Part shown: piece by piece, positions 32,816 through 49,402 of the stretch | How positions within the stretch are numbered: the first letter of the stretch is position 1 | How the letters are laid out: every line of letters starts with the position of its first letter | Sequence record: NZ_CP024444.1 | Source of the DNA: a plasmid | Direction: 5' to 3' (one strand) | DNA: 64,000 bases | Program-made: the position numbers and the translations under genes | The notes under the pieces: model-generated | What the model saw: only the letters and a program-made list of their open reading frames with translations | Told to the model about the DNA's origin: nothing | Database searches by the model: none

Positions 32816-33223
32816 ATGAAAATTACAGACATTAAGCAGTCTATTAACGACAAAGTTTTAGCAGCATTCGTTCTACTCCCAGCAATTATTGCCACCATGC
32901 CAGCCGAGGCTAGTACCTCGCTATCAGATGCCTACAGCGCAGACAAATCTAAAGCAGGCTCATTAACATCGTCAAACGGCGGTAATGCTGACGCAGGCTT
33001 AGGTATCGTCTATAAATTACTATCAGGTGTTTTCATCCTAGTGGGCTTATGGTTCATTGGTACTGGTTTCATGAAAGTTCGTAAAGCATCAAACAGTGAA
33101 GGTCGTGAAAGCCCTACAGGTGGTTGGGTTGCCGTTGTCATTGGCGGTGCCCTAGCGACATCATCTTACATTCTTTGGACCATGTCTAAAACAGTTGAAA
33201 ACGTTACTGGTGCTAGTTCATAA
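32816..33223 (+). CDS. dotP/icmD: DotP/IcmD-like small membrane protein (copy 1)
   Basis: 135 aa; signal/TM plus two TM helices; C-terminus ..LWTMSKTVENVTGASS is paralogous to the next gene. The motif lies 12 nt upstream of the ATG. Confidence 0.4.
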   Translation: MKITDIKQSINDKVLAAFVLLPAIIATMPAEASTSLSDAYSADKSKAGSLTSSNGGNADAGLGIVYKLLSGVFILVGLWFIGTGFMKVRKASNSEGRESPTGGWVAVVIGGALATSSYILWTMSKTVENVTGASS

Positions 33224-33322: not shown

Positions 33323-33712
33323 ATGGGTGTTGAAATGTCTAATCTACAACAGCTAAAAAAACTGCCTGCCACATTAATTTCATTGCTGATCCTTTTTTAT
33401 GTATCACCAACCTTTGCCGCCCTTGATGCCCTACCTGATTCGCCACACCAAGATGCAACCATTCCCAAAGTAGCAGGACATTTTGATGAAACATTGGGTA
33501 TTGCTTATAAAACCTTTACGGGTTTTGCTGTGGTGGTAGGCTTAATCTTTATTTACGTTGGACTAAGCCGACTTAAAAAAATCAATAACGATGAAATCAG
33601 TGGTAGCGTGGCATCCTGTTTTTGGATATTGGGTATCGGTGGTGCGATGGCATCCTTGGGCGTCGTTTTATTTTCTATGTCTAAAACCGTTGAGTCGGGT
33701 ACGACAGGTTAA
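33323..33712 (+). CDS. DotP/IcmD-like small membrane protein (copy 2)
   Basis: 129 aa; same architecture; C-terminus ..LFSMSKTVESGTTG. A putative terminator (33254-33290) separates it from copy 1. Confidence 0.4.
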   Translation: MGVEMSNLQQLKKLPATLISLLILFYVSPTFAALDALPDSPHQDATIPKVAGHFDETLGIAYKTFTGFAVVVGLIFIYVGLSRLKKINNDEISGSVASCFWILGIGGAMASLGVVLFSMSKTVESGTTG

Positions 33713-33738: not shown

Positions 33739-34716
33739 ATGAGTTACCTACCACATGGATTTGGCCGCCTACAGTTAAATGTTCACCGCCCTAACTGGCG
33801 CAATGAAATCAACCTCCATCGCACGCCAAAATATCTAAGTATTCTACATTCAGCTCGCCGAAATACCGCGCAAGCCGCCTGCCACTTTTGCGGTTACCCT
33901 GACGGTGAGTTTTTAGAAATTCACCATGTCAATGGCGATCATGATGATTATTCAGACGGCAATATCAAGTATGCCTGTTCATTGTGTCATCGATTACATC
34001 ATCTAGGGTGGGCTGGTATTAAGTCAAACGGCAAGCTCATTCATTTACCATCATGGCAAACCATAGGCCAACAGGGAAAAGCGCAGCATGAAGTCCATAG
34101 CCTTGAAGTGTTTAATATCATGCAACGCTTTGTCATTATGTCTAAGTTTTTAAGTCAAGACGAGCAAGAGCGTTTTCAGGCATCCGCGCTTATGGAAAGT
34201 ATTTCATCGTTGCTTGCCTGCTTTAAGCATGTTGACTTGCAAAGTGCCTATATCGCCAATAAATATCGCATTGCAAAAATCTTGCAAAATCAGCGCGAGA
34301 TTGAAACTAAAACGCCTGAAGAAAAGGCAGCGGCACTAAAAAAACAAAAAGAAGAGCGTTTAGCTGAACAGCTGCAAGATGATAGCGATGTATTTAATAC
34401 AGAAAAGCTCAACATCATTGATTTGGTCGACGCCTTATGTCAGGTGCATCAGCATCATTTACTAACGAGCCATGACCCAAAACAACCGTCGCCAACCGAC
34501 ACCTTTTTTGCCCAACAAACCACGGGTGAGTTTGGTCGTTTAACCCTATTCTATAATGAGTCAATCTTCGAGCCATTTGAGCCAAACCCTGCTTATTCTC
34601 TCGAAGAGCGTCTGCAAAGCTATCGTGATAGCAATATGTTTACCAAAGATGGGTTAACCAAAATATTGCATGTATCAAGACAAGGTCGGCAGGCAAGTCA
34701 TCAAGCAATCAGTTAG
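33739..34716 (+). CDS. dotN/icmJ: DotN/IcmJ-like Cys/His-rich zinc-binding protein with C-terminal extension
   Basis: The motif string C-x-FCGY..(8)..H-VNGDHDDYSDGN..YACSLCHRLHH..LIHLPS matches the pattern I recall for Legionella IcmJ (CQFCGF..NLDGDYTNN..ACCFCAQCFF..IYLPE). The protein is 325 aa against about 208 aa for IcmJ. Confidence 0.55.
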   Translation: MSYLPHGFGRLQLNVHRPNWRNEINLHRTPKYLSILHSARRNTAQAACHFCGYPDGEFLEIHHVNGDHDDYSDGNIKYACSLCHRLHHLGWAGIKSNGKLIHLPSWQTIGQQGKAQHEVHSLEVFNIMQRFVIMSKFLSQDEQERFQASALMESISSLLACFKHVDLQSAYIANKYRIAKILQNQREIETKTPEEKAAALKKQKEERLAEQLQDDSDVFNTEKLNIIDLVDALCQVHQHHLLTSHDPKQPSPTDTFFAQQTTGEFGRLTLFYNESIFEPFEPNPAYSLEERLQSYRDSNMFTKDGLTKILHVSRQGRQASHQAIS

Positions 34717-36155
34717 TGGCGATGTCAGTGAGTGAATTAACCCGTCAGGCGATATTTGAGTTTTTTAACCCAACTGGTCAACCTTTAACAGCCTTTGACC
34801 AATTTAAAGCTGACTATGCTTGGTGTTTTGATGTAGATATCGAAAATAGCCCACAGTTACCTTTTATTCAAGCATGGTGTAATAGCGACTTGGAACGGGT
34901 AACTGCGGCTAATTTTTTTCATCAGCCGCCAGCGGTCAAAGACTTGCCGTGTTTTGCCACCAAAGACAAAACCCTAACCTTATTAAGCACCCGTTCGGTA
35001 TGGGGACCTATGGTGTCCCGTGCTGAAAGTGTGCCGAGTTTTCTACCTGTGCCACCGCCTGCCCAATTAAACCTAGCTTATCATGAGCAGTTATTAGGGT
35101 ATGTGGTGCATCTACCTATGCGCTTGTCATCCCATCAGCAAGGTTGGTTGTCTTTGGTCAATCCCCCCATGTTATTGGAACAAGGAAAACCTTATTTTTT
35201 ATTCACCGCCAATGAGTATGAGTTCTTAAAGCGCATGCGTATACTGACATCCGCGCATGCCTGCCTGCCTATCAGTATGTTTGCGCTATCAGGTAGTTAT
35301 CTAGCCGGGCAATTAAATAAGTATCTACCCACACCATCACGCAATCAATACGCTGGTAACCCTGAATTACTAGCTATCGCCCAAGCCATATATCTACATA
35401 CTTTTTCTGCCCAATCACCGATAAACGTCAATGACGAGCAGGGCACCCATGGCATTCAGCATCTAGCCAGCTACCAAACCTTGCTGAATTTTTATCGCCA
35501 TTTGGCCAATCGAGAAGAGCGATTGCATCAGCTCATGGCATTAACCTATGGCTTGATTGCCACTAAACCGAGTAAATATAACAATCAGCCAAACCTAATT
35601 AGTCCTGAATGGTTTACTTTTAATGTATTGGCAAATGCAGACAAAGAACAGGCTAGACGCGAGCGCAAAGCCCATAATGGTTTGGGTTATTACCTTGTTA
35701 GTCGTTCAAACAAGGGTTTGGCTATTAACCTTGCGGCTTTGGCTGTCTGCGGCATTATCACCGATGAAGAGAAGATAACCGCCAAAGATGATGAGGCAAC
35801 CTCACCTGTCAAATCTCGTTCCAAGGCTAAAAAATCAACCAAGCCTGTCGAAAATAATGGCTTAGAATTGCTATTTGATGCCATCGAAAATGCCTTTGTT
35901 GTTGAAGCGGATAATGAATTAAGTGAGATCAAAGACATTTTATTGGAACCGGAAAACTATTTAGCCTTAAAACCACAGTTGATGCGACATTCAACATTAA
36001 TGCTTTCAATCCTTGAAGCCTGTATGTTTTCCGAACAAAGTGACGACAGCTCGTCACAACAACAGCAGGAACAAGAAAAACCACAGGTTCAAGACACAGG
36101 CGATGACAGCCAGTCTAACGCTATCGAAGACAAGAAGGTGCATCAAGAAGGTTAA
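34716..36155 (+). CDS. hypothetical protein (479 aa) with acidic Q/E/D-rich C-terminus
   Basis: Start overlaps the upstream stop (TAGTG). No TM or recognisable domain. Sits in the insert between the dotN and dotO homologues. Confidence 0.4.
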   Translation: MAMSVSELTRQAIFEFFNPTGQPLTAFDQFKADYAWCFDVDIENSPQLPFIQAWCNSDLERVTAANFFHQPPAVKDLPCFATKDKTLTLLSTRSVWGPMVSRAESVPSFLPVPPPAQLNLAYHEQLLGYVVHLPMRLSSHQQGWLSLVNPPMLLEQGKPYFLFTANEYEFLKRMRILTSAHACLPISMFALSGSYLAGQLNKYLPTPSRNQYAGNPELLAIAQAIYLHTFSAQSPINVNDEQGTHGIQHLASYQTLLNFYRHLANREERLHQLMALTYGLIATKPSKYNNQPNLISPEWFTFNVLANADKEQARRERKAHNGLGYYLVSRSNKGLAINLAALAVCGIITDEEKITAKDDEATSPVKSRSKAKKSTKPVENNGLELLFDAIENAFVVEADNELSEIKDILLEPENYLALKPQLMRHSTLMLSILEACMFSEQSDDSSSQQQQEQEKPQVQDTGDDSQSNAIEDKKVHQEG

Positions 36156-36215
36156 CCAGCTCACGTCTTTATCCCTTTGATGCATTTTGCAAAAACGAAA
36201 CAGGATTTTCATACC

Positions 36216-37592
36216 ATGCCAAACCACCCACTGACAGTTAAACCCTTAGCCTTAGCAACCCTTTTCTTAGCAAGCTTACCTATCTCTGCTTTTGCTTGCG
36301 GTGTAACTGATAAGCCACCCGTCAAAAAAATTCCCTCAAACTATATTGCCGCCAGCAATAATCAATGCTTAATTTATAAATTTCTTCAAGATGATGCTGT
36401 TAAAAGCGTTACATGGACAGGTGAGTGTAAAGACGGCTATGCATCCGGTCATGGTATCGCTACTTGGTTCGATGGTGAAAACAAACCAATACTTCGTGTC
36501 GATACAGAACTCGACCACGGTGATATGAATAAGAAAGCGATAATGGATTGGGAACAAGAAAACGGCTGTGAATATAAACACATGGAAACCGATATGCGTG
36601 ATAACAAACAACGGGGGCATGCGGTTATTGAGTTTACCGATGGTAATAAGTATGTTGGTGAATCAAATGACCCTAATGTACCCAATAAAGGTGTTTTTAC
36701 TTGGGGGAAAGGTAGCCAATGGTCGGGTGATCGATATGAAGGGCAGTTTTTGAATGGTATACGGGATGGGTATGGTGTATATACGTCAGGCATCTATACC
36801 GATTGGGTTAACCAAGGCATTGACTTTAAAACCGCAAAATTTAACAACCCAACTGATTTTGATGATTACGAAGGGTTTCGCTATGAAGGTCAATGGAAAG
36901 CCGGTAACAAAGACGGTAAAGGTAAATTTTATAGTAAAGATTTTAATTATGAAGGCGATTGGGTGGATGACCAAAAAAATGGCAACGGTGTGGGCTACTG
37001 GCCTGGAAAAAAGGCAACTTATGAAGGGCAATGGAAAAATGACCAGCCTAATGGAAAAGGCAAGCTGACCACTGAAGAATTACGCTATGAGGGTGATTTT
37101 ATAGATGGCAACCGACATGGCCATGGCGTTTATTACTTGTACAAAGAGAATTCAAAATATGAAGGGGAATGGAAAGACGATCAAACCAATGGGAAAGGTA
37201 TGCTTACCCGTAATGATGACAAATGGTACCAATGGTACCAAGGGGACTTTCAGCATAGTAAAATTTCAGGGAAGGGTGAGCTGCATCTTGCAAGTGGTAC
37301 CGTAGCCGTAGGTAGTTTTATTGGTGGTTATGTGTGGGGCTTTAACACCGTCACTGTCCCAAAACCTGCCTATGATAACCCTAAAGCAAAACGTACTCCA
37401 AGTCTTGGTAAGTGGGTAGACCCAAACACCTATGTTGAACAAGGTTGGTTTTTTAATGATAAATTAGTCTTTAACTGTAAAAGCGAGCAAGATTGCTATA
37501 AGATTGCCAAAACCGATCCTGTTAAAAACAAATTCATTAAAGACACCGAGAAAAAAAGAGAATACTTTGAATTAAATTCAACGCTCGATTAA
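36216..37592 (+). CDS. MORN-repeat lipoprotein
   Basis: Signal peptide with lipobox (..LPISAFACG). At least 8 MORN-type repeats (YEGQWKAGNKDGKGKFY / YEGDWVDDQKNGNGVGY / YEGQWKNDQPNGKGKLT / YEGDFIDGNRHGHGVYY / YEGEWKDDQTNGKGMLT). Confidence 0.6.
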   Translation: MPNHPLTVKPLALATLFLASLPISAFACGVTDKPPVKKIPSNYIAASNNQCLIYKFLQDDAVKSVTWTGECKDGYASGHGIATWFDGENKPILRVDTELDHGDMNKKAIMDWEQENGCEYKHMETDMRDNKQRGHAVIEFTDGNKYVGESNDPNVPNKGVFTWGKGSQWSGDRYEGQFLNGIRDGYGVYTSGIYTDWVNQGIDFKTAKFNNPTDFDDYEGFRYEGQWKAGNKDGKGKFYSKDFNYEGDWVDDQKNGNGVGYWPGKKATYEGQWKNDQPNGKGKLTTEELRYEGDFIDGNRHGHGVYYLYKENSKYEGEWKDDQTNGKGMLTRNDDKWYQWYQGDFQHSKISGKGELHLASGTVAVGSFIGGYVWGFNTVTVPKPAYDNPKAKRTPSLGKWVDPNTYVEQGWFFNDKLVFNCKSEQDCYKIAKTDPVKNKFIKDTEKKREYFELNSTLD

Positions 37593-37619
37593 ATACACCC
37601 ATTACAATCAATAAAACAA

Positions 37620-37644
37620 AACAGGCTTAATAGCCTGTTTTTTC
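37620..37644. terminator. bidirectional rho-independent terminator
   Basis: ACAGGCT-TAAT-AGCCTGT hairpin followed by a T6 run, between convergent genes 36216-37592 (+) and 37670-39259 (-). Confidence 0.7.
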
Positions 37645-37669
37645 GTACAGTTACTCGGGTAATGGTGGG

Positions 37670-39259
37670 CTAAAATGGCGACATGGTCATTTCATTTTGT
37701 TGTGCCATCGTTGGGGCAGGGGTTGGTGGTTCAGGCTCATTGACCAAGGTGTTGCGACCTTTTGGCGAGATTAAATCCAAGTCTTCTTGCGAATAGAACT
37801 CACGAATTGGTACATAGCTAAGTTTGCCAAAATTCGCATCAAGGCTATCAAGCATGGCTTGGGTTTCAAAATTCTTCACTTGAGGGTCGTCGGTCAAGCT
37901 TACGATGGTTTGGCGTGTCGATTTGCGCCACAAGTCTTTGATACTATCATCCCCTGACGTCAACCCTTTTTCTGCAATTAACTTTTCGACCAAACCACCA
38001 GCGTTGATGCCAGGATAGTCACTGATTAATTTAAACTCATAATCATCAGATAGGGGCTTACCGCCTTGGCTTGCGGCAATTTCTTGCATAAAGTTTTCAT
38101 AAGACCCAGCGTATTTAGGCTCAAACATTTTAAATTCATTGCCATTTTTATGGTCAAGCACGGCAATTTTGGCATCTAAATCCCAAAAGATGTTACGTTT
38201 TTCGTGATTAGGATGAATGACATTGTATTCACTCAATACCTCACGGGCTTGATCGACACGCTCACTGATATCATCAAACGCATTCCACACTTGCTCGCTA
38301 TGTTCAATGCTCACTTGGTATTGCGATTTACCTGTCGTTTGACTAATGTGTTCAACTAAGTGCTTATGAAAGGTGTTATCATCAAAAGCCAGTTCTTTGG
38401 CAAAATAAGTATTTAGGTCAGCCGATGTATTAAGATTTAGCTCGCCAATCTTTACCTTGCCCAATTCATCATGGTCAACGTTCACATCAAATTGCACTTT
38501 TGGTGGGTGCGTCGCATCATTTTCATGATGACGAGTGAAGGCTGCGCTAACTTGCTGCATGCCGATAAACTGTTTGGCAAAATCTTCACCAAGTTTAGCT
38601 TTGGGGTCGCTTATGCCATCGCTAATGATTTTACTAAATTTGTCACTCACAATGTCTGCCGCTTGCTGCGCATCGATGCCATAGTCTTCAGTTTTATCCG
38701 CTAGATGACGAGCCGCGATAATCGACGTGGTAACCTCACTTTCTTCAAAATAATCACGCAACTGGCTTACCAGCTTTTCACCTTCGGCACCAGCCCCGAT
38801 TTTATCTAACGTTTCACGAATTTCTTCGCCTATATCATGGGTCGTGACTTCCCAATTACCGCCGTTATTACGAAACGTCTGCTCGATAAAGCGTCCTTCA
38901 TCAAAGTTCAGCATGTCAATCTTGGTTTCTTCAACCCCGTTAACCACCGTGCGCTTAATCTCAATCCCGTATTCTTCCAACACTTCATTAGGAATATTTT
39001 CAATGGTAATTTGCTTATCTTGGTTTGGCGTGGTGGTGGTAATTTGATTGCCATCTAAGGTGAAATGGGGGTTATTGCTGACCAAATCTGCGGTATAAAA
39101 CGCCTTATTGTCATTATTGATGACGATGACTTGGTCAGGTTCTAGGTATTTTAGGTTATCAAACGTATTGCTACTTTGCTCGGGGTCAACTTTGTAGTCT
39201 TTACCGTCTTTACCTCGGACAATATCGGCAGTTACGCCATAAGAAAAGTTTTGTGGCAT
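37670..39259 (-). CDS. hypothetical acidic soluble protein (529 aa), candidate T4SS substrate/effector
   Basis: No signal peptide or TM; D/E-rich. It is the only reverse-strand gene inside the core cluster and has its own copy of the island motif about 17 nt upstream of the ATG. Confidence 0.45.
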   Translation of the reverse strand: MPQNFSYGVTADIVRGKDGKDYKVDPEQSSNTFDNLKYLEPDQVIVINNDNKAFYTADLVSNNPHFTLDGNQITTTTPNQDKQITIENIPNEVLEEYGIEIKRTVVNGVEETKIDMLNFDEGRFIEQTFRNNGGNWEVTTHDIGEEIRETLDKIGAGAEGEKLVSQLRDYFEESEVTTSIIAARHLADKTEDYGIDAQQAADIVSDKFSKIISDGISDPKAKLGEDFAKQFIGMQQVSAAFTRHHENDATHPPKVQFDVNVDHDELGKVKIGELNLNTSADLNTYFAKELAFDDNTFHKHLVEHISQTTGKSQYQVSIEHSEQVWNAFDDISERVDQAREVLSEYNVIHPNHEKRNIFWDLDAKIAVLDHKNGNEFKMFEPKYAGSYENFMQEIAASQGGKPLSDDYEFKLISDYPGINAGGLVEKLIAEKGLTSGDDSIKDLWRKSTRQTIVSLTDDPQVKNFETQAMLDSLDANFGKLSYVPIREFYSQEDLDLISPKGRNTLVNEPEPPTPAPTMAQQNEMTMSPF

Positions 39260-39278
39260 GGGAATATCCTATCATGGT

Positions 39279-39289
39279 TCGCTAAAAAT
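39279..39289 (-). promoter_or_regulatory. island motif copy on the minus strand (TTTTTAGCGAA)
   Basis: About 17 nt upstream of the minus-strand start at 39259. Confidence 0.55.
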
Positions 39290-39349
39290 TAATTACCCGA
39301 TAAAGGGTGATTAAATATTAGCATACTCACATGCGCTTAACTATGAAGT

Positions 39350-39757
39350 TTACAATTGGCTTATTGTCCTGGCATTCAACATTTCGCATGGATTTTTTAG
39401 GCAAGTGGGGTCGACACTATAGGCAGCATAGCTTGCTGACCAAAACACCCCTTCATCCACAGATAGCATGCCACTCGCCTCGCGTTTTAATGCCTTTGTC
39501 GATGCACTTTTGAAGCGATTGACCAGTGATGAAACACTGATAGTCGCAGGATAACGCACAATAAAATTAATGCAATGTGGCTCATACTCAAATATTATGA
39601 GCTGACCGCCGTTTAAATCGCATACCCTAAATATAGCCTCTTTGATGATAGCTTGTGTTGTATCATCAAGTTTATGGGCATCATTTAAAATATAGAACAC
39701 TAAATATGTATAAAGGTATGAAACCACGAAGCGACGGTCTTTAAATCCCCTTGACAT
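39350..39757 (-). CDS. IS200/RAYT-like (Y1 HUH superfamily) protein with degenerate HuH motif
   Basis: 135 aa. ..IIFEYEPHCINFIV.. aligns with the RAYT HuH region ..VVLPEHMHCIW.. but lacks the second His. C-terminal ..YAAYSVDPTCLKNP.. resembles the RAYT catalytic-Tyr region ..YIYINPVKHG... Confidence 0.4.
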   Translation of the reverse strand: MSRGFKDRRFVVSYLYTYLVFYILNDAHKLDDTTQAIIKEAIFRVCDLNGGQLIIFEYEPHCINFIVRYPATISVSSLVNRFKSASTKALKREASGMLSVDEGVFWSASYAAYSVDPTCLKNPCEMLNARTISQL

Positions 39758-39870
39758 ATCATTAGACCTATTTATAATTTGAAAGCAATGTTTATTCTAA
39801 TCTTATCATTAATACAATAAACATCCTACAAGCAAACTTGACTACGGGTGTTCACGTCAGTCATTTTTAA

Positions 39871-39881
39871 TTTTTAGCGAA
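39871..39881 (+). promoter_or_regulatory. island motif copy (TTTTTAGCGAA)
   Basis: About 160 nt upstream of the SNase-like lipoprotein gene; followed by the inverted repeat TTGTCAATAACTTGACAA. Confidence 0.45.
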
Positions 39882-40042
39882 TATTAACTTTAGTTGGACA
39901 TTGTCAATAACTTGACAAAAATATAAGATAATTTAACACACTTGTTGATAAATACGTTAAACTGTCTTAACTAACTATATACCAATTGGTTAGCATAAAA
40001 GTTAATGTTAAGTTCTTAACCAACCACCTTATGCGAAACTTT

Positions 40043-41080
40043 ATGAAAAAATCTGCATTGGTTTTTGTGAGTTTATTGGCTGGCGTGTCGATGACGGCAT
40101 GTAGTTCAAACAACCAATCTAAACAAGCAAAAGCCGCATCTGCGCCAGCCGCTACCGATGTACATGAAGCACAAGATACATGGGTCGCAAACGCTATCGT
40201 TGACCCACAATTCAAACTCACCCAAGAATATCAAAAATACGTCAGCAATCCCAATTACACACCCATGCTACAAAACATACCACATTTGATTGGTATGACA
40301 TCTTCAGAGCAATCCGCTTTACTTGCACAAAACCAAAGTGTTTTAAATATCAATAATATTGATTATATGTTTACCGCTGATACCTTGATACTACAACCAC
40401 AAGGGTTATTGAGCTCTAATATCAAATCAAATTTTGCCTTGCCACCCGGCAATTTAAAACTACGCCTATTGGATATTGATTGCCCAGCGCATGACCAATA
40501 TGGCGATAAAGAGGCACAAGCGCAGCTAAAAACCTTAATTGATTTTGCAAAATTGCCTGTACCAACACCGCGCATCGAATTTTACTTTAATAATGCCGAC
40601 TCGTCGGGTCGTCTGCTTGGCTATTTAACCGTCTTATATAGTAATGGCTTGCGTATTAACTTAAATAGAAGTTTGGTGGCCAGTGGTCAGTGCTTTAATC
40701 ATGTTGAAGGCAATCAAGACCCTATGATGTCGTTTATCCAAAACATGGCTAAAGCATCACAAACAGGGATATGGGCGCAAGAACAAACCTTGCGTAAACA
40801 AAATAAGTGGGTCATGCCAGCCGATTATAGAAAGGTGCATCCCGATCCAACCAATATTGATATCCCAGCAGGCATAGTCAGCAATCAACCAATAGTAGGT
40901 CTTGCATCGGCAACCGCAGGCACGGTGATGCCGACTGCATCAACGCCCATTGCGACCACCACAACCAACAATAAAACTGTCACCGTTACCACTAACCCGA
41001 CAACAGGTAGCACCAATCAAGTGGTAACAACGACCAATAGTACCGTAGTAAAACAACCAGCTGCACCAACAGTTAAGTAA
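40043..41080 (+). CDS. staphylococcal-nuclease (SNase/thermonuclease)-like lipoprotein
   Basis: Start moved to the MKKSALVFVSLLAGVSMTACSS lipoprotein signal. SNase-like ..LRLLDIDCPAHDQYG.. and ..GRLLGYLTVLYSNGLRINLNRSLVASG.. motifs. C-terminal T/N/P-rich low-complexity tail. Confidence 0.55.
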   Translation: MKKSALVFVSLLAGVSMTACSSNNQSKQAKAASAPAATDVHEAQDTWVANAIVDPQFKLTQEYQKYVSNPNYTPMLQNIPHLIGMTSSEQSALLAQNQSVLNINNIDYMFTADTLILQPQGLLSSNIKSNFALPPGNLKLRLLDIDCPAHDQYGDKEAQAQLKTLIDFAKLPVPTPRIEFYFNNADSSGRLLGYLTVLYSNGLRINLNRSLVASGQCFNHVEGNQDPMMSFIQNMAKASQTGIWAQEQTLRKQNKWVMPADYRKVHPDPTNIDIPAGIVSNQPIVGLASATAGTVMPTASTPIATTTTNNKTVTVTTNPTTGSTNQVVTTTNSTVVKQPAAPTVK

Positions 41081-41129
41081 AAAATCTGTCGTTTATCGAC
41101 AGTCTATTGTTTGAAATAGAAATTAATTA

Positions 41130-41137
41130 TTAGCGAA
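41130..41137 (+). promoter_or_regulatory. island motif copy (TTAGCGAATAAGAGG)
   Basis: Same motif + SD arrangement as at 32793, upstream of dotO-like ATG 41150. Confidence 0.55.
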
Positions 41138-41149
41138 TAAGAGGTTTGA

Positions 41150-44100
41150 ATGAGCATTGTTAACAATGTACAAAATATTGTATTAAGCATCCTGCATGCG
41201 CTAAAAGCCAATGTGGAAGACTATTGCGACCTTGAAACCACCGATGGTCCTACTGAATTAGTATTTAAAAATGGCGGCATGATGACCCTTGTTCGGTACG
41301 ACGGGTTGTTATCCATGATTACCCGTGACATCTTTGATGGTATGAATGACCGTCTTACTGAAGAAATGGCACCGTTTTTAAACAAGTCAGGTCATAAAGT
41401 CTGTATGATGTTTCGACGTGACTTAGATGCCAACTCGTCGCTTCAAACCATTAATCAGCTGCAAAAGCAAACCTGTGAACGCTTGAACTTAGACTTGGGT
41501 TATCTGATTGATGAAAATACCGAAATTTACGAAAAATATATCTATGACGAAGAGTGCTACATTGCCTTAATCACCTTGCCATCCGTTTTAGATAAGGTTG
41601 AGCGTGAAAATCACGAAGAGTATTTAAAGTCGTTCATCGCGCCAGCCATGAAGGATGCGCAAAATCTATCTGCCCCCATTCCCACCTTACGTGCTCGCCA
41701 CTCTTCATTTGTTGAAAAATTCATAACCACCATCAACAACAAAGATTTCTATGTTAAAGCGGTTAAGGTCAACATCCTTGATGCCCTAGCGGTCGTGCGT
41801 CACCAAGTAGCACCAAATACCTCCGACCGTCGCTGGCGTCCGGCAGTTGCCTTAGGTGCTGCCAATGCGCGTGAATTAGGTATTAAGTATCGTACACCGC
41901 TACGTTGGCCAACCACCAGCAACTCACATGATTTTTCACACATGTTGCCGCCATCATTGCCTGAACAAATCATGTTTAATAACATTAATATTTTAGGTCC
42001 CAAAGAGGGCTTGCCACCCAATACCATTGCTACCGATGGTCGTTTGTATGCCACCACCATGATGAATATTCCGCCAACCCAACCAGCGGTATTTGAAGCC
42101 TTATTCAATAGCTTTAATGAGTCATCGTCAAAGGATAGTATGGGGCGCATTCGCTCGATGCCATACTCAATTTGTTTTATGTTGACGGGTGACGGCTACG
42201 CAGGGCATGCGGTGAAAAAAGCCTTTATGCAGTTTTTAAGCAAAGTGCCACCAAGCACCAATGAAAATTTAAAAGCAGCAACCAGTCAGCTGTTAGAATA
42301 TAAACGTGCCGATGTACCCTTGGTTGCGTTTCAGATATCAGCCATGACGTGGTGTGATGATGATGCGTTTGGACGTGAGGAAATCCGTAAACGTCGTACT
42401 CGCTTAATTCATACCTTATCTACTTGGGGTGGCATGAGCTGTGTTGAACGTGCTGGTGACCCTGTATCGATGTTTACCAGTAATATTATTGGTTTATCAG
42501 ACACTTCAATTGCACCAAAGGGTGTTGCGCCTCTACCACGCGCATTTGAAATGATGCCGTTCACCCGTCCTGCATCGCCTTTTTATAAAGGCACGGTACT
42601 GCGTCGCACCCAAGATGGTAAAGCGATGATTTTGGAACGTTTCTCGTCTGAATTAAGCACATGGATTTCGCTATATTCAGGTCGACCGGGTTCGGGCAAA
42701 TCGGTATCGCTTAACAACGACTTAACTGAAACTTGCTTTATGCCGGGTATTGAGCGACTGCCGTATATTACCGTGATTGACGTGGGTATTAGCTCGACAG
42801 GTTTTATTAATCAGCTGCGCAATGGGCTACCTAAGCACCAACGCTATCTTGCTGTCACCAAGCAATTAAGAAAGTCGCGAGAGTATGCGATCAATCCATT
42901 TGATATCAAAGTGGGCTTAACCCGTCCGCTTGAAACCGAAAAAAACCAAATGGCCAGTTTCTTAACCTCGCTATTAACCCCTAAAGAAAAACGTGAACCT
43001 TATAACGGCACTTATAACTTCGTCCTGTACCTTATCACTGAAGTATTTGAGTCAGTAAATGAAGGGGAAGAGAAGGGGTCATCGAAAATCTATCGATACG
43101 GTTATGCCCCTGAATTGGATGATTACTTAATCAATAACAACATCATTCGCTTTGGTACTAAACAAGTGGCTGACGGGTTTGGTGGTCTTAAAAAAATTAT
43201 TGACGGCGATGACATTGAATCGGTCAGTTATTATGAATTAACCCGACGCTTACATGTGATTGGTACTAAATTTGGTGGTGATGAACGCGCATTGGCTTGG
43301 CGTGCTCGTGACTTGGCGCATCGAAACGCAATGCCAACCCTAGATGACATTGTTAAGGTGTTAAATAAACCTGAAACCACCAAACGCTATAAAAACAAAA
43401 TCGAAACTGAAGAAACCATTGTTGAATACGCCTCGCGTGTTATCAATGAGGTAATTAATAACTACCCATGTTTTGCCAATACGACACGTTTTGATGTCGA
43501 CACAGCTCGCGTGGTCGCGCTTGACTTAAACGATGTGGTGGACGTAAATAACCCACAGCAAACCTCGTTGTTTTATCAAATCGCCCGTATGGTGGGGGTA
43601 AAAAAAATCTCACTAACCGAGCAGGATATTGAGTCTGAAGCCATCCCTGACTTGTTTAAACCGTATTACCGTGACCTGTTCCGTGAAATCTCACAGGACC
43701 GCAAAATCCTTGCTATGGATGAAATGCATAACTTGCAGGGTGAGCCTGTCCTCATGGCGCAGCTTGAGAAAGACTGCCGTGAGGGTCGTAAATGGGGACT
43801 TGAAGTTATTTTGGCGTCCCAACGTTTAATCGACTTTAAACGCATTGTCGGCTACGCAACCACGTTAAACATCTGTAGTGAGCCAGCTGGTGAGGACTTA
43901 GCATTACTGCGTGAAAACTTCCGTATCAACGACACCATGGTAGACCAACTGTCACGCATTTCATTGGGTCGTGAAGGCTTAAGTTATTTCTCTTACATCG
44001 TCGGTAAAACCGATATTTATTGTTCAATGCTTACCATGACGGTAGGTCCAAAACGCTTATGGTCGCTGACCACCGATGCTGATGACCGTATTTTACGTCA

Positions 44101-44359
44101 GTATATGTTTGATATCGCTGGCGACAGAAAAACCGCGATCAATGCACTGGCGTTTCGGTTCCCGGGTGGTGCTCGTAACGCCATTAGTGACCTACGTGAG
44201 CAAGTTAAGCTTAAAAGCTCTGACCTATCTGAAGTTGAAATGGAAAAAGAGGCTGGCAACTTGATTGAGAACTTGGCTCGCGAAACGTTGTCGATGTGGG
44301 ACCAATTCCAATTAAATATACAAGCCGACGAACAAAGCGGCTTGTTAGCGTTCGCATAA
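41150..44359 (+). CDS. dotO/icmB: DotO/IcmB (TraU-like) VirB4-class T4SS ATPase
   Basis: 1069 aa; Walker A ..YSGRPGSGKSVSL.. and Walker B ..ILAMDEMHNL..; follows the dotN-like gene as in Legionella. The motif TTAGCGAATAAGAGG lies upstream. Confidence 0.7.
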   Translation: MSIVNNVQNIVLSILHALKANVEDYCDLETTDGPTELVFKNGGMMTLVRYDGLLSMITRDIFDGMNDRLTEEMAPFLNKSGHKVCMMFRRDLDANSSLQTINQLQKQTCERLNLDLGYLIDENTEIYEKYIYDEECYIALITLPSVLDKVERENHEEYLKSFIAPAMKDAQNLSAPIPTLRARHSSFVEKFITTINNKDFYVKAVKVNILDALAVVRHQVAPNTSDRRWRPAVALGAANARELGIKYRTPLRWPTTSNSHDFSHMLPPSLPEQIMFNNINILGPKEGLPPNTIATDGRLYATTMMNIPPTQPAVFEALFNSFNESSSKDSMGRIRSMPYSICFMLTGDGYAGHAVKKAFMQFLSKVPPSTNENLKAATSQLLEYKRADVPLVAFQISAMTWCDDDAFGREEIRKRRTRLIHTLSTWGGMSCVERAGDPVSMFTSNIIGLSDTSIAPKGVAPLPRAFEMMPFTRPASPFYKGTVLRRTQDGKAMILERFSSELSTWISLYSGRPGSGKSVSLNNDLTETCFMPGIERLPYITVIDVGISSTGFINQLRNGLPKHQRYLAVTKQLRKSREYAINPFDIKVGLTRPLETEKNQMASFLTSLLTPKEKREPYNGTYNFVLYLITEVFESVNEGEEKGSSKIYRYGYAPELDDYLINNNIIRFGTKQVADGFGGLKKIIDGDDIESVSYYELTRRLHVIGTKFGGDERALAWRARDLAHRNAMPTLDDIVKVLNKPETTKRYKNKIETEETIVEYASRVINEVINNYPCFANTTRFDVDTARVVALDLNDVVDVNNPQQTSLFYQIARMVGVKKISLTEQDIESEAIPDLFKPYYRDLFREISQDRKILAMDEMHNLQGEPVLMAQLEKDCREGRKWGLEVILASQRLIDFKRIVGYATTLNICSEPAGEDLALLRENFRINDTMVDQLSRISLGREGLSYFSYIVGKTDIYCSMLTMTVGPKRLWSLTTDADDRILRQYMFDIAGDRKTAINALAFRFPGGARNAISDLREQVKLKSSDLSEVEMEKEAGNLIENLARETLSMWDQFQLNIQADEQSGLLAFA

Positions 44360-44371
44360 TAAGGAAACATC

Positions 44372-47317
44372 ATGCCAGCGTATCAGGGTAATCAATTAAA
44401 ATATAAGCCAACCGAACAGCGTGCTGAAACCAAACGATGGTCAGTACGCATGGCGGAATACTGGAAAACCTCTGAAGGGGCGACTTTCCTAGCAGGGACT
44501 TTGTCGGTTATCGGACTGGTTTCATCATTTTTCCCATTAGGGGGTATTCTAGCTTATCTACCGCTGCGTATCTTATCTCGCAATTTTTTATACCCTGAAC
44601 GCAATTTGCATGATATGCCTATTCGGGTACCAAAATACTTGGGGCTGCCCGATGGCTCTATCGATGCAACCGCCCGAGGTATTAACCCTAAAACCCAACC
44701 TGACAAGCTACTAGGTCAAGGCGTCACCTATCTTGGGATTGACCGCCAAACAGGTCGCCAAACCTATATTAGTAACTCGGACGTGCGCACCCACATGACC
44801 ATCATTGGGACCACAGGTTCGGGTAAAACTGAATTTATTTTTAGCTTGATTGATAACCAGCTTATTCAAAATAGTGGCTTTATCTTCGTCGATGCCAAAG
44901 GCGACATCAATTCACAGCGTACCGTCTGTGCGATGTTGCGTCGCTATATGCGTGAAGATGACATGCTGTCTATTTCATTTGGTGCGTTCGGGCGTAACTT
45001 TATGGAAGCCCAGCTTGATAAGCCAACCAATACCATGAATATCATGGCAAGTACCAGTGATGGTATGCTAATTGAGCTGTTGGCTGGCATGTTAGATAGC
45101 GGTGGAGGTTCATCTGACCTGTGGGTGGGTCGTGCAGTTGCTTTTGTGGGTGCGCTGACAAGACCACTGGTGTTCTTGCGTGACCGTGGCGAAATTAACC
45201 TGTCACCAAGCACGTATATTGAATACATGGAATTAAGCGAAATTGAACGCTTGGTATTTGAGCGCAATAACGATTATCCTGGCTTTGATGAAGTGTTGGC
45301 ACCGCTACGTTCTTACCTTATCACCTTGCCAGGTTATAGCATGGCCAAACGTGCCAAGGGTGAGGCACAAGACCAAAAAACCAATGAGCAGTTTGGTTAT
45401 ATCACCATGCAGCTAACCCGTGCAATCAATGACTTGTCCTACACCTATGGGCATATTTTTGGGGTCGAGCAAGGGGATGTGGATGTCGTCGATGTTATTT
45501 TAAACCGTCGCTGTTTAACCATCTTATTACCAGCCCTAGAACGTTCGATTGACTCATTGAATATGCTAGGTAAGCTCATTATCGGTAGTATCAAGCAAAT
45601 GATGGCAGGCTCGCTTGGTAATAAAATGGAAGGCTTGATCCGTGTGACCGTTGACTCACGCCCAACCACCGCAAATGACGCCTTTCAAATCATCCTAGAT
45701 GAAGTTGGGTACATGATGGTTCGCGGCATGTCAATTATTCCGGCACAAGCTCGCGCATTGAATATTGGCATGGTGTTTGCGTCACAATCGTACACCGATT
45801 TAAAACGTGGGTCAGCAGAAGAGGCTGAAGCGATTTGGGCAAATACCACCATTAAGGTCGTGGGTCGTTTAACTGAATCTGAAGACGATGAAACCATTCG
45901 TAAAGTTAAAGGTGTCGCTGGTCAATACGAACAGATGGTAACCAATAGCTATGACTATCAAGGTACCGATGTTGGCTATCAATACAACCCATCGCAATCC
46001 GTTCACCGCGAAATGCGCTCGCAAATCAATATGCAAGACTTGGGTGGTCAGCAAGACGGTGAATTCCATGTGGTGATTGGTAAGAAATTTAATGGTGGCA
46101 AATCACAAGGTTTAGCGGTTGTCCGTATTCTAGGTTTCTATATGGGCAAGATTGCTGAAGGCTCTCACATGTACCTAAATGACCTCGCGCCAGCACCCAT
46201 GCCCGATAAACGTAAATTTTTACATCTAAAAGAAGTCACCCAGCAATTACAAAGTGTGATTGAAAAACAGCAGTTAAGCCATGAGCTCAACAACAATATT
46301 AGCCAAACTGCCTCTATCCAAAAAACCCAAACCAATCGCTTAAGAAGTGAGCGAACGCCAGTTGGAACCGATAAAAACAATATTATTTTATTCCTGCGCC
46401 ATGCCAAACAAGAGATTATGGCGCATGCTGACGACTATGGTAGTCGCGCCTTGGTGACCGAGTTAACCCTTAATCGCTTGTCTGAAAGCTTGCAATCAGT
46501 GTTTAATAGCGAAGTGGTATTGCCTGTTAACCGCTTACGCAACGGCTCTATCAATCCAATGCAAGATGACGACGTCACAGGCTTTGTGGTGAGTCATGCC
46601 CCTGACATGCTGGATAGCAACTTGGTGACGGCAATGTCTGCCAATTTTGCGCAAACAGGCTACACCTTTGACCGCAGCTCGCATGAAGCAACCTTGCGCC
46701 ATCACTATGAGCTTGCTGAACAGCTACGCCAAGACGCTGAATTGGCGCGTTTAGAATCCGTGTATGCCGATAGTGATTTCCTTTGGGAAAGCCGTAAAAA
46801 TCAGCATTTTGATAGCATGTACCTAAACAATCATGGCGCATTGCCAAGCGATGCCTCGAACACGCCTGAAATGCAGGCATTGTCCCAGCAATTTGAAGAA
46901 AGACAGCTGCTACAACCACTGGCAATGACGGTGTTGTTTAATAACCATGAGATTAATGCCGCCATGAGCAATCCTGAACAGCTGCCAGCGGATGTTGACC
47001 CAACGTGGTTGTTAAATGCCAATGCCATTAAAGATGCTGACCAGTTGCGTAAAAAAATCCAGCAATACCTTGCCTTGCATCACACCCAAAACGAGGCGAT
47101 TGCTACCGAACATCAAATGCTATGTTTCTCAAACCGCTTAAGTGCCTCTATTGCTACCCAAAATGAAGCATTAGACAACCTTGGTAAAAACCGTCCTGTA
47201 TCGCCAAGCCGTTTCTTTGAAGATATGTCAGATAACAACTTACAAGAAACCTTTAAACGACTACGAAACAATGCATTGGTCGCACAGCAACAGCCAAAAA
47301 AAGATGACAGCCAATAA
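44372..47317 (+). CDS. dotL/icmO: type IV coupling protein (DotL/IcmO / TrbC-R64 / VirD4-TraG family) with long C-terminal extension
   Basis: 981 aa; N-terminal TM (..FLAGTLSVIGLVSSFFPLGGILAYL..), Walker A ..IIGTTGSGKTEF.., Walker B ..QIILDEVGYM... Translationally coupled to the dotO-like gene with a 12-nt gap. Confidence 0.7.
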   Translation: MPAYQGNQLKYKPTEQRAETKRWSVRMAEYWKTSEGATFLAGTLSVIGLVSSFFPLGGILAYLPLRILSRNFLYPERNLHDMPIRVPKYLGLPDGSIDATARGINPKTQPDKLLGQGVTYLGIDRQTGRQTYISNSDVRTHMTIIGTTGSGKTEFIFSLIDNQLIQNSGFIFVDAKGDINSQRTVCAMLRRYMREDDMLSISFGAFGRNFMEAQLDKPTNTMNIMASTSDGMLIELLAGMLDSGGGSSDLWVGRAVAFVGALTRPLVFLRDRGEINLSPSTYIEYMELSEIERLVFERNNDYPGFDEVLAPLRSYLITLPGYSMAKRAKGEAQDQKTNEQFGYITMQLTRAINDLSYTYGHIFGVEQGDVDVVDVILNRRCLTILLPALERSIDSLNMLGKLIIGSIKQMMAGSLGNKMEGLIRVTVDSRPTTANDAFQIILDEVGYMMVRGMSIIPAQARALNIGMVFASQSYTDLKRGSAEEAEAIWANTTIKVVGRLTESEDDETIRKVKGVAGQYEQMVTNSYDYQGTDVGYQYNPSQSVHREMRSQINMQDLGGQQDGEFHVVIGKKFNGGKSQGLAVVRILGFYMGKIAEGSHMYLNDLAPAPMPDKRKFLHLKEVTQQLQSVIEKQQLSHELNNNISQTASIQKTQTNRLRSERTPVGTDKNNIILFLRHAKQEIMAHADDYGSRALVTELTLNRLSESLQSVFNSEVVLPVNRLRNGSINPMQDDDVTGFVVSHAPDMLDSNLVTAMSANFAQTGYTFDRSSHEATLRHHYELAEQLRQDAELARLESVYADSDFLWESRKNQHFDSMYLNNHGALPSDASNTPEMQALSQQFEERQLLQPLAMTVLFNNHEINAAMSNPEQLPADVDPTWLLNANAIKDADQLRKKIQQYLALHHTQNEAIATEHQMLCFSNRLSASIATQNEALDNLGKNRPVSPSRFFEDMSDNNLQETFKRLRNNALVAQQQPKKDDSQ

Positions 47318-47330
47318 AGTGAGCAACGCT

Positions 47331-47660
47331 ATGAATAATAATCAACTTATGGATGATGATAATTTAGATGACGAATTCTTGCCATCCCCGTTATACGATA
47401 GTATGAAAACCCATCAAAGCTTTGAACACCTATTGGATAATGCCAAGTCGGTATTAAATACTCGTGCAGACTTTCCATTTTCTAGTATGCATAAACAAAC
47501 ATTAAAAAAATTGGAAAAAGTTGATAAAGCCTTTTTAAAACAAGTGACATTAGCTTTATCAACAGATGATGTAAAAAAGGATCAGTTATTAGCCAGTAAA
47601 CTAGAACAGATTACCCAATATCTGTTAGAAAGATTTGACTTCCTCCCCTCCCTAAAGTGA
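47331..47660 (+). CDS. hypothetical small protein whose 3' end is formed by IS200/605 terminal sequence
   Basis: Start trimmed to MNNNQLMDDD.. (ATG 47331). The last codons (..FLPSLK*) are encoded by the right-end hairpin of the TnpB element. Confidence 0.35.
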   Translation: MNNNQLMDDDNLDDEFLPSPLYDSMKTHQSFEHLLDNAKSVLNTRADFPFSSMHKQTLKKLEKVDKAFLKQVTLALSTDDVKKDQLLASKLEQITQYLLERFDFLPSLK

Positions 47661-48870
47661 GGGGATTCCTTCTACAAGACGGTCAAGCCCGACCGCAAGA
47701 ATGTTCTTAGCAGCATTGATATCTCTATCATGCCATGTGCCACACGTTGCACAAGTCCATTCTCTTATCCCAAGCGATTTTCTACCTTTCGGACTGTTGT
47801 CGGTAATATCACCGCAACACGAACATCGTTGGGTCGTGTATTTTTCATTCACGATTTCAAAACGGCAACCTGCGTTCTCGCATTTGTAGGTCAGTTGTCG
47901 TTTCATTTCAAACCAACCTGCATCGTAAACCGATTTAGCCAGTTTGCCTTTTTTACTATTAAATTGATTACTCTGAATATCACCGACCACGATTAGGGCA
48001 TTGTCCTTGACTAATTGGGTGGTAAATTTATGGATTAAGTCTTGGCGTGTGTTTTTGATTTTGGCATGGATCGCTTTGACACGCTGTTTGTTTTTGGCAC
48101 GTTGGGCGGTGGCTAAATCTTTGGCATATTTGAGCGTTTGTTTGATTTGTAATTTATTGCCATTTGAGGCGGTGGCACTGTCTTTTAAGCCTAAGTCAAT
48201 GCCTACGCTACCCGTTCCGCATTGTGTCTTGGGGTATTCTTTGACGGTAATACAGGCATACCAACGGTTACGGCTGTCTTGCACGATTTCTAGTGTGTTG
48301 ATTTGATACAGCGATAGATTGTAGCTGTCCCATAGGTCGATGGTTAGCTTTTGCCCTTTGGCTAGACTTAGTTGCAGAGTTGATTTTAAGCCCTTTTTGC
48401 CTGTTTGGTGGGTGGCAATATGCTTAATAGCCGATTGTTTAAATGGTAGCCAACCAAGCGATTTACGCTTAGAATTTGGGTTGTTGGTTCGCCAGTTAAG
48501 TTTGGATTTTTTGAATTGTTTACGGCTTTTGGCGTGGGTTTCGCTGATAGCTTGAATAGTTTGTGAGTGCAAGCCCAGTAACTCACCGCTACCTTTGGTG
48601 TAGTCGTTTAGGTCATAAGCACTAAAGAATTTGCCAGTTTTTTGTAGGTGTCTGTAACTCAAATCATTGACATAATTCCACACGAAATTGACCGAACCGC
48701 TTAGGCGGTTTAGTTGGTCTGTGTGTTTATCTCGTATGCGTAGCTTGAGTGTTTTCATCGGAATTAGTGTGGCAAGTTATGTTTGAGGTTTCAAGGTGCT
48801 AGGTTGGCTATACGTCATTATGCGTCGTGTTGTTTGCCTTATATCCACCGCCTAAATGCGGTGGTTTTAC
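47640..48870. mobile_element. IS200/IS605-family TnpB-only element (IS1341-like)
   Basis: Sub-terminal hairpins CCCCTC-CCTAAAGT-GAGGGG (47645-47664, RE side, 3' of tnpB) and CCACCGC-CTAAAT-GCGGTGG (48845-48864, LE side). No tnpA present. Confidence 0.7.
47652..48758 (-). CDS. tnpB: TnpB (IS605 OrfB-family RNA-guided nuclease)
   Basis: 368 aa; RuvC-I ..GIDLGLKD.., zinc finger C-x2-C..C-x2-C (..CSCCGDIT..CATCG..) and RuvC-III ..HDRDINAAKNI... Confidence 0.85.
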   Translation of the reverse strand: MKTLKLRIRDKHTDQLNRLSGSVNFVWNYVNDLSYRHLQKTGKFFSAYDLNDYTKGSGELLGLHSQTIQAISETHAKSRKQFKKSKLNWRTNNPNSKRKSLGWLPFKQSAIKHIATHQTGKKGLKSTLQLSLAKGQKLTIDLWDSYNLSLYQINTLEIVQDSRNRWYACITVKEYPKTQCGTGSVGIDLGLKDSATASNGNKLQIKQTLKYAKDLATAQRAKNKQRVKAIHAKIKNTRQDLIHKFTTQLVKDNALIVVGDIQSNQFNSKKGKLAKSVYDAGWFEMKRQLTYKCENAGCRFEIVNEKYTTQRCSCCGDITDNSPKGRKSLGIREWTCATCGTWHDRDINAAKNILAVGLDRLVEGIPSL

Positions 48871-49402
48871 GGCAAGGGGTGATAAAAACGCTTTACTAAA
48901 TACCGAGCTTAAGCATATTACCAGCTACCCACACTTAGGTTACCATCTATTTTTGTTAAAAGATCAACACCTAGTTGCTTATTACGAAGACACAGCTTTG
49001 ATTTCTACCTGTCAGATTTACGTTGATGATGCAGATTTGGGCACTTGGATGTATGTGAATTATTTGCTTGAAAAAATTATCTATTTTGACGTATATAGAA
49101 CCAGCCTTGATAAGCTTACAGTAGGTAGCGTCCTTATTAATCAACCCAAAGATAAAGCATATTCGTTACAAGCATTTAAAGTGGTAGCCAAAAACACCAT
49201 ACCACTGACAGATACTTATGCTATGCTGAACAATACAGTTCTGACACTCGCGCCCATTATGCGTTTAAACAATGCAATAGACCCAAATAAAGTTATTGGT
49301 TGGAATGTATTAGCACTTCCAGGTTATGATAATGATAAGGGTCAGTTGTCCGTTACCATCCCGGCACTAGAGCATGAAGTTGGCACTTTTTACATTAAAT
49401 AA
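48827..49402 (+). CDS. hypothetical protein, 5' end possibly disrupted by the TnpB element
   Basis: The predicted start lies inside the IS left-end hairpin region, so the true N-terminus is uncertain. Confidence 0.3.
   Translation: MLFALYPPPKCGGFTARGDKNALLNTELKHITSYPHLGYHLFLLKDQHLVAYYEDTALISTCQIYVDDADLGTWMYVNYLLEKIIYFDVYRTSLDKLTVGSVLINQPKDKAYSLQAFKVVAKNTIPLTDTYAMLNNTVLTLAPIMRLNNAIDPNKVIGWNVLALPGYDNDKGQLSVTIPALEHEVGTFYIK

Follow-up and report, generated by a model that had tools for sequence, protein, structure and literature searches.

Genes between dotN and dotO in a plasmid type IVB secretion system of Moraxella osloensis: a lineage gene followed by a probable accessory hotspot

Why should the dotN-like and dotO-like genes of a type IVB secretion system (T4BSS), which adjoin one another in Legionella, lie more than 6 kb apart on a plasmid of Moraxella osloensis? 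We addressed this question in a stretch of 64,000 nucleotides (nt) of the plasmid sequence record NZ_CP024444.1, hereafter the window, in which five open reading frames (ORFs) at 34716-41080 separate the two genes. An earlier note, made from the letters of this DNA alone, had taken all five for an accessory insert of about 6.4 kb splitting a conserved junction, and for candidate cargo of the secretion machine. All five ORFs were confirmed. Our analysis suggests that the interval probably consists of one conserved, machine-associated gene, which we call X, followed by about 5 kb of strain-variable accessory hotspot, and that its content reflects ordinary plasmid mosaicism rather than a set of effectors. 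The arrangement from which the note started, dotN followed immediately by dotO, is correct for Legionella and for IncI1 plasmids, but not for the relatives of this system, in which one gene usually lies between the two.

The gene that follows dotN

X (34716-36155, plus strand) encodes 479 amino acids (aa), and its name is a label without functional meaning. It is start/stop-coupled to dotN, its start being either a GTG overlapping the stop codon of dotN (TAG/GTG) or an ATG 6 nt later, and the acidic tail that had been attributed to its product is indeed present, with 12 Asp/Glu against 4 Lys/Arg in the last 60 residues. A full HMMER scan of 1.84 billion representative proteins yielded three homologues (P0003, P0004 and P0006; 413-431 aa, 24-29% identity, E 3e-12 to 7e-6), and all three are encoded directly between a DotN-like gene and DotO, in loci L006, L007 and L008/L009. 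In L006-L009 the gap from the X gene to DotO measures only 131-372 nt and holds nothing else, and synteny with the window extends in these loci from DotI to DotL and further. L006-L008 are also the closest relatives found for this system, with 52-53% identity in DotO, 54-59% in DotH and 41-44% over the full length of the DotN-position protein. Because homologues of X stand between DotN and DotO in the closest relatives, X does not belong to the insert, and the claim of a five-gene insert fails. The comparison of related dotN-dotO junctions, which the earlier note had itself proposed as a check, thus gave a divided answer: the first gene is conserved in these loci, and the other four are missing from them. 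For the first gene this is the outcome that the note had named as refuting its proposal. From these alignments X appears to be a conserved member of the T4BSS sub-lineage, integral to it and fast-evolving.

The two flanking genes are identified with unequal strength. On the left, the 325-aa DotN/IcmJ-like (TraT-like) protein (33739-34716, plus strand) has a zinc-finger/HNH motif, CxxC...HHxNGD...CxxCH, which is also found in plasmid genes annotated 'HNH endonuclease' at the equivalent position. Its match to the NCBIfam model IcmJ_DotN (NF038221) has an E-value of 6.6e-6 and 25.8 bits, below the cut-off of 100, and its top matches in the Protein Data Bank (PDB), L. pneumophila DotN 5x42/5x1h, are weak (E 0.012). 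On the right, the 1069-aa DotO/IcmB/TraU-like ATPase (41150-44359, plus strand) shows in tblastn 33-38% identity over 97-98% of its length to plasmid genes annotated DotO/TraU or ATP-binding protein. The tblastn matches bear out a DotO-like right flank, and the family and PDB matches, with the family score below its cut-off, are consistent with a DotN-like left flank.

The position directly after dotN is also occupied elsewhere. Plasmids of Acinetobacter sp. 10FS3-1, P. syringae and A. pittii (loci L002, L003 and L004) have a single gene of 347-420 aa in this slot, starting 6-9 nt after the DotN-like gene. Among 20 genome loci retrieved with a DotO alignment (L011-L030), 17 have 1.15-1.45 kb between DotN and DotO, and in the remaining three the two genes are adjacent. 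Most T4BSS loci of plasmids other than IncI1 have one gene here, about 350-430 aa in length and coupled to its DotN-like neighbour. At least four families can be told apart among the encoded proteins, and no similarity was detected between one family and another or between any of them and X. Two readings of the slot can be held: it is either a very fast-evolving or hypervariable component or a place that has been repeatedly refilled.

Further searches added few relatives. A reciprocal tblastn search with P0006 against all plasmids matched only the X gene of pMOXF1, a 248-kb M. osloensis plasmid (CP040258.1) that is 99.5% identical to the window over 18 kb around the dotN-dotO interval, and word-indexed searches and the plasmid collection queried with X, like searches with the X alignment, returned only its own cluster or sequences already known. 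DotO alone as query produced no closer relatives in genome_contigs or metagenome_contigs, an alignment-based DotO scan gave only relatives at 27-36% identity, and L006 had no match in the plasmid collection. A structure predicted for X from a four-sequence alignment had a mean predicted local distance difference test score (pLDDT) of 46, with core residues 120-195 near 78; Foldseek found no PDB match to it with E below 0.4, and sequence searches of the PDB were also negative. The C-terminal region of DotL is as unconserved as X, alignments stopping near residue 780. X may be a DotN-coupled, lineage-specific partner of the coupling complex, working with DotN and DotL, a model prompted by its coupling to dotN, its faster evolution than that of the core proteins and the unconserved DotL C terminus.

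The four-gene insertion and its variation among strains

With X set apart, the true insertion is a M. osloensis-specific accessory segment of about 5.0 kb (36156-41149) that is missing from L006-L009. Its four genes encode a putative MORN-repeat lipoprotein, a 529-aa orphan, a relic of the transposase TnpA and a putative lipoprotein of the staphylococcal nuclease (SNase) family, and no homologue of any of the four proteins was present in any related locus compared. For these four genes the earlier proposal holds: they form an accessory insertion, specific to the lineage, in front of dotO and equipped with promoter and terminator signals of its own. It is also true that no insert gene matches a named Dot/Icm family. 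PADLOC and PHROGs searches of the five proteins of the interval gave nothing meaningful. The insertion is not marked as foreign by its base composition (40.4-42.6% GC, against 38-47% for the T4BSS genes, with GC at third codon positions behaving likewise), and no convincing direct or inverted repeats bound the 5 kb.

To see how this segment behaves, eight other M. osloensis contigs were compared with the window across the interval from X to dotO. L005 and L034-L037, from five different samples, have an identical deletion of window positions 36181-37084 that leaves an 86-aa MORN remnant, and L033 combines this deletion with a second one, 37464-37610, which makes six independent contigs with a truncated or lost MORN gene. 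Strain E6P75 (GCA_030015105.1) carries the deletion allele together with about 14.4 kb inserted at 37141-37146, these 6 bp being present on both sides. The E6P75 island lies within the interval between X and the 529-aa gene (12529-20978 in L038, 12110-21590 in L032 and approximately 101062-115438 in SSCJ01000007.1) and encodes an IS256-type transposase, a TnsE_C-domain protein, AbiV, a PDC-S35/TIR protein, a type III restriction-modification system and SIR2-HerA, with E-values of the PADLOC defence calls down to 0. The block formed by the 529-aa, TnpA-like and SNase-like genes, along with the dotO junction, has the same organisation in all eight variants. Since the MORN gene is truncated or lost in natural variants, it is dispensable; and its loss, accompanied in E6P75 by a defence island within the remnant, argues for a cargo hotspot at this site and against a group of substrates for the machine. 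Unrelated cargo is accepted in the interval from X to the 529-aa gene, and the 529/SNase block is fixed in the plasmid lineage.

The polymorphic MORN gene (36216-37592, plus strand; Pfam MORN E 9.9e-35) belongs to an ORF that opens at a TTG at 36177, the ATG at 36216, with AGGA 11 nt upstream, being the likelier start. Its product matches PF02493 in five stretches with 116.8 bits, for a cut-off of 22.5, and resembles only generic MORN proteins. It had been described as a MORN lipoprotein with at least eight repeats; the MORN assignment is right, and the count is better given as six canonical repeats (YEGxW..G..G) plus several degenerate ones. The hydrophobic N terminus ends in ...SAFAC, and that of the SNase-like protein in ...SMTAC. 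We take both lipoprotein candidates to fit the PROSITE PS51257 pattern, the putative lipoboxes having been judged by eye.

The 529-aa protein (37670-39259, minus strand), constant in all the M. osloensis variants examined, is acidic and soluble as described, with a pI of 4.60, no hydrophobic segment and no cysteine. It had no match in Pfam, NCBIfam, PHROG, PADLOC or the PDB, and among 5.8 billion proteins and the plasmid collection it found only its own M. osloensis cluster at >=90% (at least 90%) identity; a structure predicted from the single sequence (pLDDT 36.6) was unusable. Fragments of this protein and of the SNase-like protein are deposited as partial proteins of 'Mycobacterium tuberculosis' (for example MBP0556362.1, MBR7559141.1 and MBP0656680.1), which are most likely M. 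osloensis contamination of assemblies. Next to the 529-aa gene lies what had been called a degenerate HUH/RAYT-like gene, and this description was borne out. The 135-aa product (39350-39757, minus strand) has the fold of an IS200/IS605-type Y1 transposase (PF01797, Y1_Tnp; E 3.6e-11, 43.7 bits, cut-off 23), and its score against the NCBIfam IS200 equivalog (43.8 bits) is below the cut-off of 55. Aligned to 2ec2, it has C-I-N in place of the HUH motif (HIH), and the alignment ends at residue 112, the 23 C-terminal residues having no tyrosine in the YxxxQ position. With HUH lost and the catalytic tyrosine region missing, the relic is, as judged from its residues, catalytically dead.

The SNase-like lipoprotein (345 aa; 40043-41080, plus strand), also constant in all variants, agrees with its earlier description as a secreted SNase-like lipoprotein with a Thr/Asn-rich tail: besides the putative signal peptide, it matches PF00565 with 29.3 bits (cut-off 21) over profile positions 1-107 of 107, and it has an N-terminal extension of about 135 aa in addition to the tail. 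Length variants of 337, 341, 345 and 349 aa occur among M. osloensis contigs and probably represent four-residue indel steps in this tail. The domain was aligned with two plasmid thermonucleases and with the S. aureus nuclease. In S. aureus numbering it keeps R35, D40 and R87, T41 is replaced by Cys and E43 by Ala (the next residue is His), and no DGDT is aligned, a possible 'TADT' lying 14 residues further upstream. The A. pittii and E. coli plasmid thermonucleases retain both DGDT and IDAPE. Because the general base E43 is changed to Ala and no aligned DGDT is found, nuclease activity of the product appears doubtful.

Genes of this family are no strangers to such plasmids. The nearest plasmid matches of the domain are thermonuclease genes, and 35 of the 42 records are on conjugative plasmids; one such gene lies between excA and trbA of an IncI-gamma/K1 plasmid and another 4.7 kb after DotL on an A. 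pittii plasmid. The nuc gene is counted among the transfer genes of R64 (PMC6112013). SNase-type nuclease genes are thus routine residents of MPF_I plasmids.

Signals for transcription were sought across the interval and the cluster. A bidirectional intrinsic terminator, which the earlier note had put at 37620-37644, was found at 37618-37641 (AAAACAGGCTTAATAGCCTGTTTT), where the MORN and 529-aa genes converge; it has a 10-bp stem and a run of T on either strand. The hairpin reported after the nuclease gene is present too (41086-41102), though weak, with a 6-bp stem and a poor T tail, and it is probably leaky. The window contains 12 exact copies of the 8-mer TTAGCGAA, where 2.3 would be expected. 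Nine copies start 12-26 nt upstream of gene starts of the cluster and on the strand of the gene, usually with TTAATT(T/A) before them, and the genes concerned include those for the DotF-like and DotP-like proteins, dotO (41130) and the 529-aa gene (39285, minus strand). Copies of the motif, TTAATT(T/A)TTAGCGAA, are at 21018, 25941, 30785, 32796, 39278 (minus strand), 39874, 41130, 54707, 58172 and 59277. As for the motif-bearing promoter that had been ascribed to the 529-aa gene, the cluster-wide motif is present as TTAATTTTTAGCGAA at 39278-39292 (minus strand), its TTAGCGAA core starting 26 nt upstream of the start codon. A second TTAATTTTTAGCGAA copy at 39867-39881 (plus strand) is its exact inverted partner; it holds the tenth TTAGCGAA copy (39874), in the intergenic region between the TnpA-like and SNase-like genes, and no ORF starts directly after it. 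In front of dotO the motif takes the form TTAATTATTAGCGAA (41123-41137, plus strand), with the core 20 nt upstream of the start and AAGAGG following. A related motif, TAGCNAA, stands 20-26 nt upstream of orthologous gene starts in L006 and L008, and in the loci from Acinetobacter and Pseudomonas no motif of this type was found so placed. The motif may be a dedicated promoter, a -10-like element or a gene-start signal acting at the RNA level, and its presence upstream of the 529-aa gene is the sole evidence for a functional tie of that gene to the T4BSS.

The best sigma-70 site in the 33-42 kb region, a perfect TTGACA-16-TATAAT (39751-39778, plus strand; 12/12 matches), is predicted by consensus match only and faces the SNase-like and dotO genes. 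We also considered 39867-39925 as a duplicated dotO 5' end, with the SNase-like gene as a separate insertion. This was rejected: the similarity has a z of about 4.6, yet after the motif it is no higher than in other motif pairs.

The replicon and its type IVB machine

The proteins encoded here are exactly identical to ATR79617-ATR79622 of the M. osloensis NP7 plasmid (271,709 bp), and a literature search found nothing on the T4BSS of this plasmid. A divergent type IVB cluster spans approximately 21 kb to 60 kb of the window. DotI/IcmL (PF11393, E 3.5e-23; NCBIfam IcmL, E 2.2e-21, the latter below its curated cut-off), DotH/IcmK (PF12293, E 1.5e-50) and a DotG-like protein (NCBIfam DotG, E 8e-13, below the curated cut-off) are encoded in the conserved order, which identifies the system as type IVB (Dot/Icm - IncI Tra/Trb, MPF_I). 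Both the DotO/TraU ATPase and a DotL/TrbC coupling protein are also present; the gene for the latter lies at 44372-47317 (NCBIfam TrbC_conju, E 9.1e-89, below the 800-bit cut-off; Pfam TraG-D_C), and a DsbC-like (thioredoxin-fold, TrbB-like) protein is encoded in the cluster as well. With tblastn, DotO-like genes were found in 3776 plasmid records, 3219 of which are typed conjugative, and the best non-self matches were Acinetobacter plasmids at 38% identity. In view of these matches, plasmid systems of the MPF_I type, and not Legionella, are the right comparators, and the machine is a plasmid, conjugation-type, IncI/MPF_I-like T4BSS in M. osloensis rather than a host-targeting Dot/Icm system.

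Some features around the interval are recorded here for completeness. At the DotP/IcmD position there are two tandem small membrane proteins (32816-33223 and 33323-33712), where L006-L008 have three, and no family model matched them. The gene that follows dotL is interrupted by a 1247-bp TnpB-only element of the IS200/IS605 family (47635-48881), whose TnpB is encoded on the minus strand at 47652-48758 (NCBIfam guided_TnpB, E 6e-80); pMOXF1 and the other M. osloensis variants that span the site (L032) lack the element and have the target gene as an uninterrupted ORF of 274 aa. The region 16495-20802 (minus strand) contains a gene of the class A beta-lactamase family (PF13354, E 6e-40), directly upstream of the T4BSS cluster, and beside that gene a run of IS3-, IS1- and IS5-family transposase genes.

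Competing explanations and relation to known systems

In the earlier note the intervening genes were lineage-specific cargo of the machine, with the 479-aa and 529-aa proteins as substrates or effectors accompanied by adhesin-like lipoproteins and a nuclease acting through the T4BSS. IncI-type systems can transfer proteins, for example Sog primase, both soluble proteins are acidic with acidic or Glu-containing C termini (a matter of composition only), and the 529-aa gene is fixed in all variants examined and shares its upstream motif with core T4BSS genes. We nevertheless regard this explanation as improbable. Nothing in this plasmid MPF_I-like T4BSS of a skin/environmental Moraxella points to the host-targeting biology of Dot/Icm systems, and a scan of ORFs with family models detected no adaptor of the IcmS/IcmW type among them. 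The 479-aa gene, coupled to dotN, belongs to the operon as a conserved member, and the MORN gene is lost in many variants. The putative lipoproteins carry Sec/Lol-type signal peptides and would thus not be substrates of the type IV machine. A conjugation-type system on a plasmid gives 'effector cargo' no supporting context, and the claim of substrates or effectors is therefore unsupported. The MORN protein, the SNase-like protein or both might instead be surface, entry-exclusion or recipient-recognition factors of the plasmid, comparable to the exclusion genes, specific to their lineages, that other transfer operons contain. Both have lipoprotein-type signal peptides and are encoded inside the transfer operon, the SNase-like domain, having no equivalent of the general base Glu43, may bind rather than cut, and IncI-type plasmids have excA in the tra region beside a thermonuclease gene. 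Such a function is not readable from sequence, however; Pfam and NCBIfam scans gave no similarity to known exclusion proteins, and the MORN gene is often deleted while the rest of the cluster is kept, so that we hold out little hope for this proposal.

A further possibility is that all four insert genes are pure passengers and that the motif copies near them are duplicated pieces of the original intergenic region between X and dotO. The uptake of unrelated cargo at this spot, exemplified by the E6P75 defence island, would agree with it, as would a dead IS200-type transposase in the middle of the insert and the two motif copies around that relic, which form an exact 15-nt inverted pair. On the other hand, the TTAGCGAA core of the 529-aa gene is placed 26 nt upstream of the start, compared with 20-26 nt for six core genes, all eight variants have an unchanged 529/SNase block next to a neighbour that varies, and the supposed duplication of the dotO 5' end did not exceed other motif pairs; this possibility is accordingly one that we judge rather unlikely. 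Going further in the opposite direction, the slot after dotN could hold an unrecognised class of fast-evolving T4BSS subunits, lineage-specific adaptors of the DotL-DotM-DotN coupling complex, and the invariant 529-aa protein could be delivered to recipients or be otherwise needed for transfer, a combination that seems to us unlikely.

Several points weigh against the division into a conserved gene and an accessory hotspot that we prefer. Only three relatives from the sub-lineage support the conservation of X, and all come from metagenome or read-archive assemblies. Pairwise BLAST and hhalign comparisons of X with the Acinetobacter and Pseudomonas slot genes gave nothing significant, and what looks like one conserved slot could instead be the outcome of repeated independent insertion. 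The fixed 529/TnpA/SNase block and the motif of the 529-aa gene would also fit a genuine functional tie with the machine. The promoters, the terminators and the function of the motif are sequence predictions. Finally, pMOXF1 is typed 'non-mobilizable' by MOB-suite (PLSDB), which makes the conjugative function putative, and no relaxase was identified among the window ORFs scanned.

If the interval is indeed a conserved gene followed by a hotspot, the roles and transcription units that we infer would be as follows. The ancestral operon order would be dotN-X-dotO-dotL, and the M. osloensis lineage would have fixed a block at the hotspot made up of the 529-aa orphan, the IS200-type relic and the nuc-like SNase lipoprotein gene. 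The MORN lipoprotein gene would be a further dispensable addition, riding on the dotN-X transcript. Transcripts of dotN-X(-MORN) would stop at the bidirectional terminator, and expression of the SNase-like gene, dotO and dotL would be re-initiated from the motif and sigma-70 signals downstream of the new terminator. Defence systems would later have been taken up at the same spot in another strain. The insert genes would serve conjugation or the cell surface in an auxiliary way at most, possibly as a nuc-like or DNA-binding lipoprotein or as a surface or exclusion factor.

The closest parallels are with conjugative plasmids. As in IncI1 (R64/ColIb-P9) and IncM/L (pCTX-M3), the gene order runs DotI/TraM, DotH/TraN, DotG/TraO ... 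DotN/TraT, DotO/TraU, with a TrbC/DotL coupling protein and a thioredoxin-fold TrbB-like protein, and, as in IncI, a gene of the staphylococcal nuclease family accompanies the transfer genes. What stands immediately before traU is reported to differ between these plasmids, being traS-traT in IncI1 and the unrelated orf38 in IncM pCTX-M3 (PMC6112013). The nuclease-like protein described here differs from the IncI nuc product in being a putative lipoprotein, 345 aa long, that has an additional N-terminal domain and a Thr/Asn tail and lacks an equivalent of Glu43, and its gene lies directly upstream of dotO; IncI/IncM plasmids have no counterparts of the coupled X, the 529-aa orphan or the MORN lipoprotein. 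With the icmJ-icmB pair of Legionella and Coxiella the system shares DotN-like and DotO-like proteins in the same order and on the same strand, but the DotN similarity is weak, the locus is plasmid-borne, and its nearer relatives are plasmid T4BSSs that usually have one gene between the two.

In SXT/R391 integrative and conjugative elements, variable hotspots between conserved transfer genes hold accessory and anti-phage cargo that differs from strain to strain. The M. osloensis site resembles them as a fixed spot in a conjugation gene set, which holds the MORN gene in the window and defence genes in E6P75. It differs in its machine (an MPF_I T4BSS on a megaplasmid), in its host (Moraxella), in its position (between X and dotO) and in the finding of a defence island in one strain only.

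The locus thus adds one more case to a phenomenon already known rather than revealing a system of a new kind. Most worth attention in it are the slot occupied by X, the orphan 529-aa protein and the motif found at gene starts. What it changes is the Legionella-centred reading of a plasmid T4BSS, as one of the presumed insert genes appears to belong to the conserved lineage set of the machine. It also defines a specific hotspot for cargo, lying between X and dotO on the megaplasmids of M. osloensis, at which one strain holds four anti-phage systems, and it should be useful for the annotation of Moraxellaceae plasmids and for the study of how transfer operons tolerate insertions.

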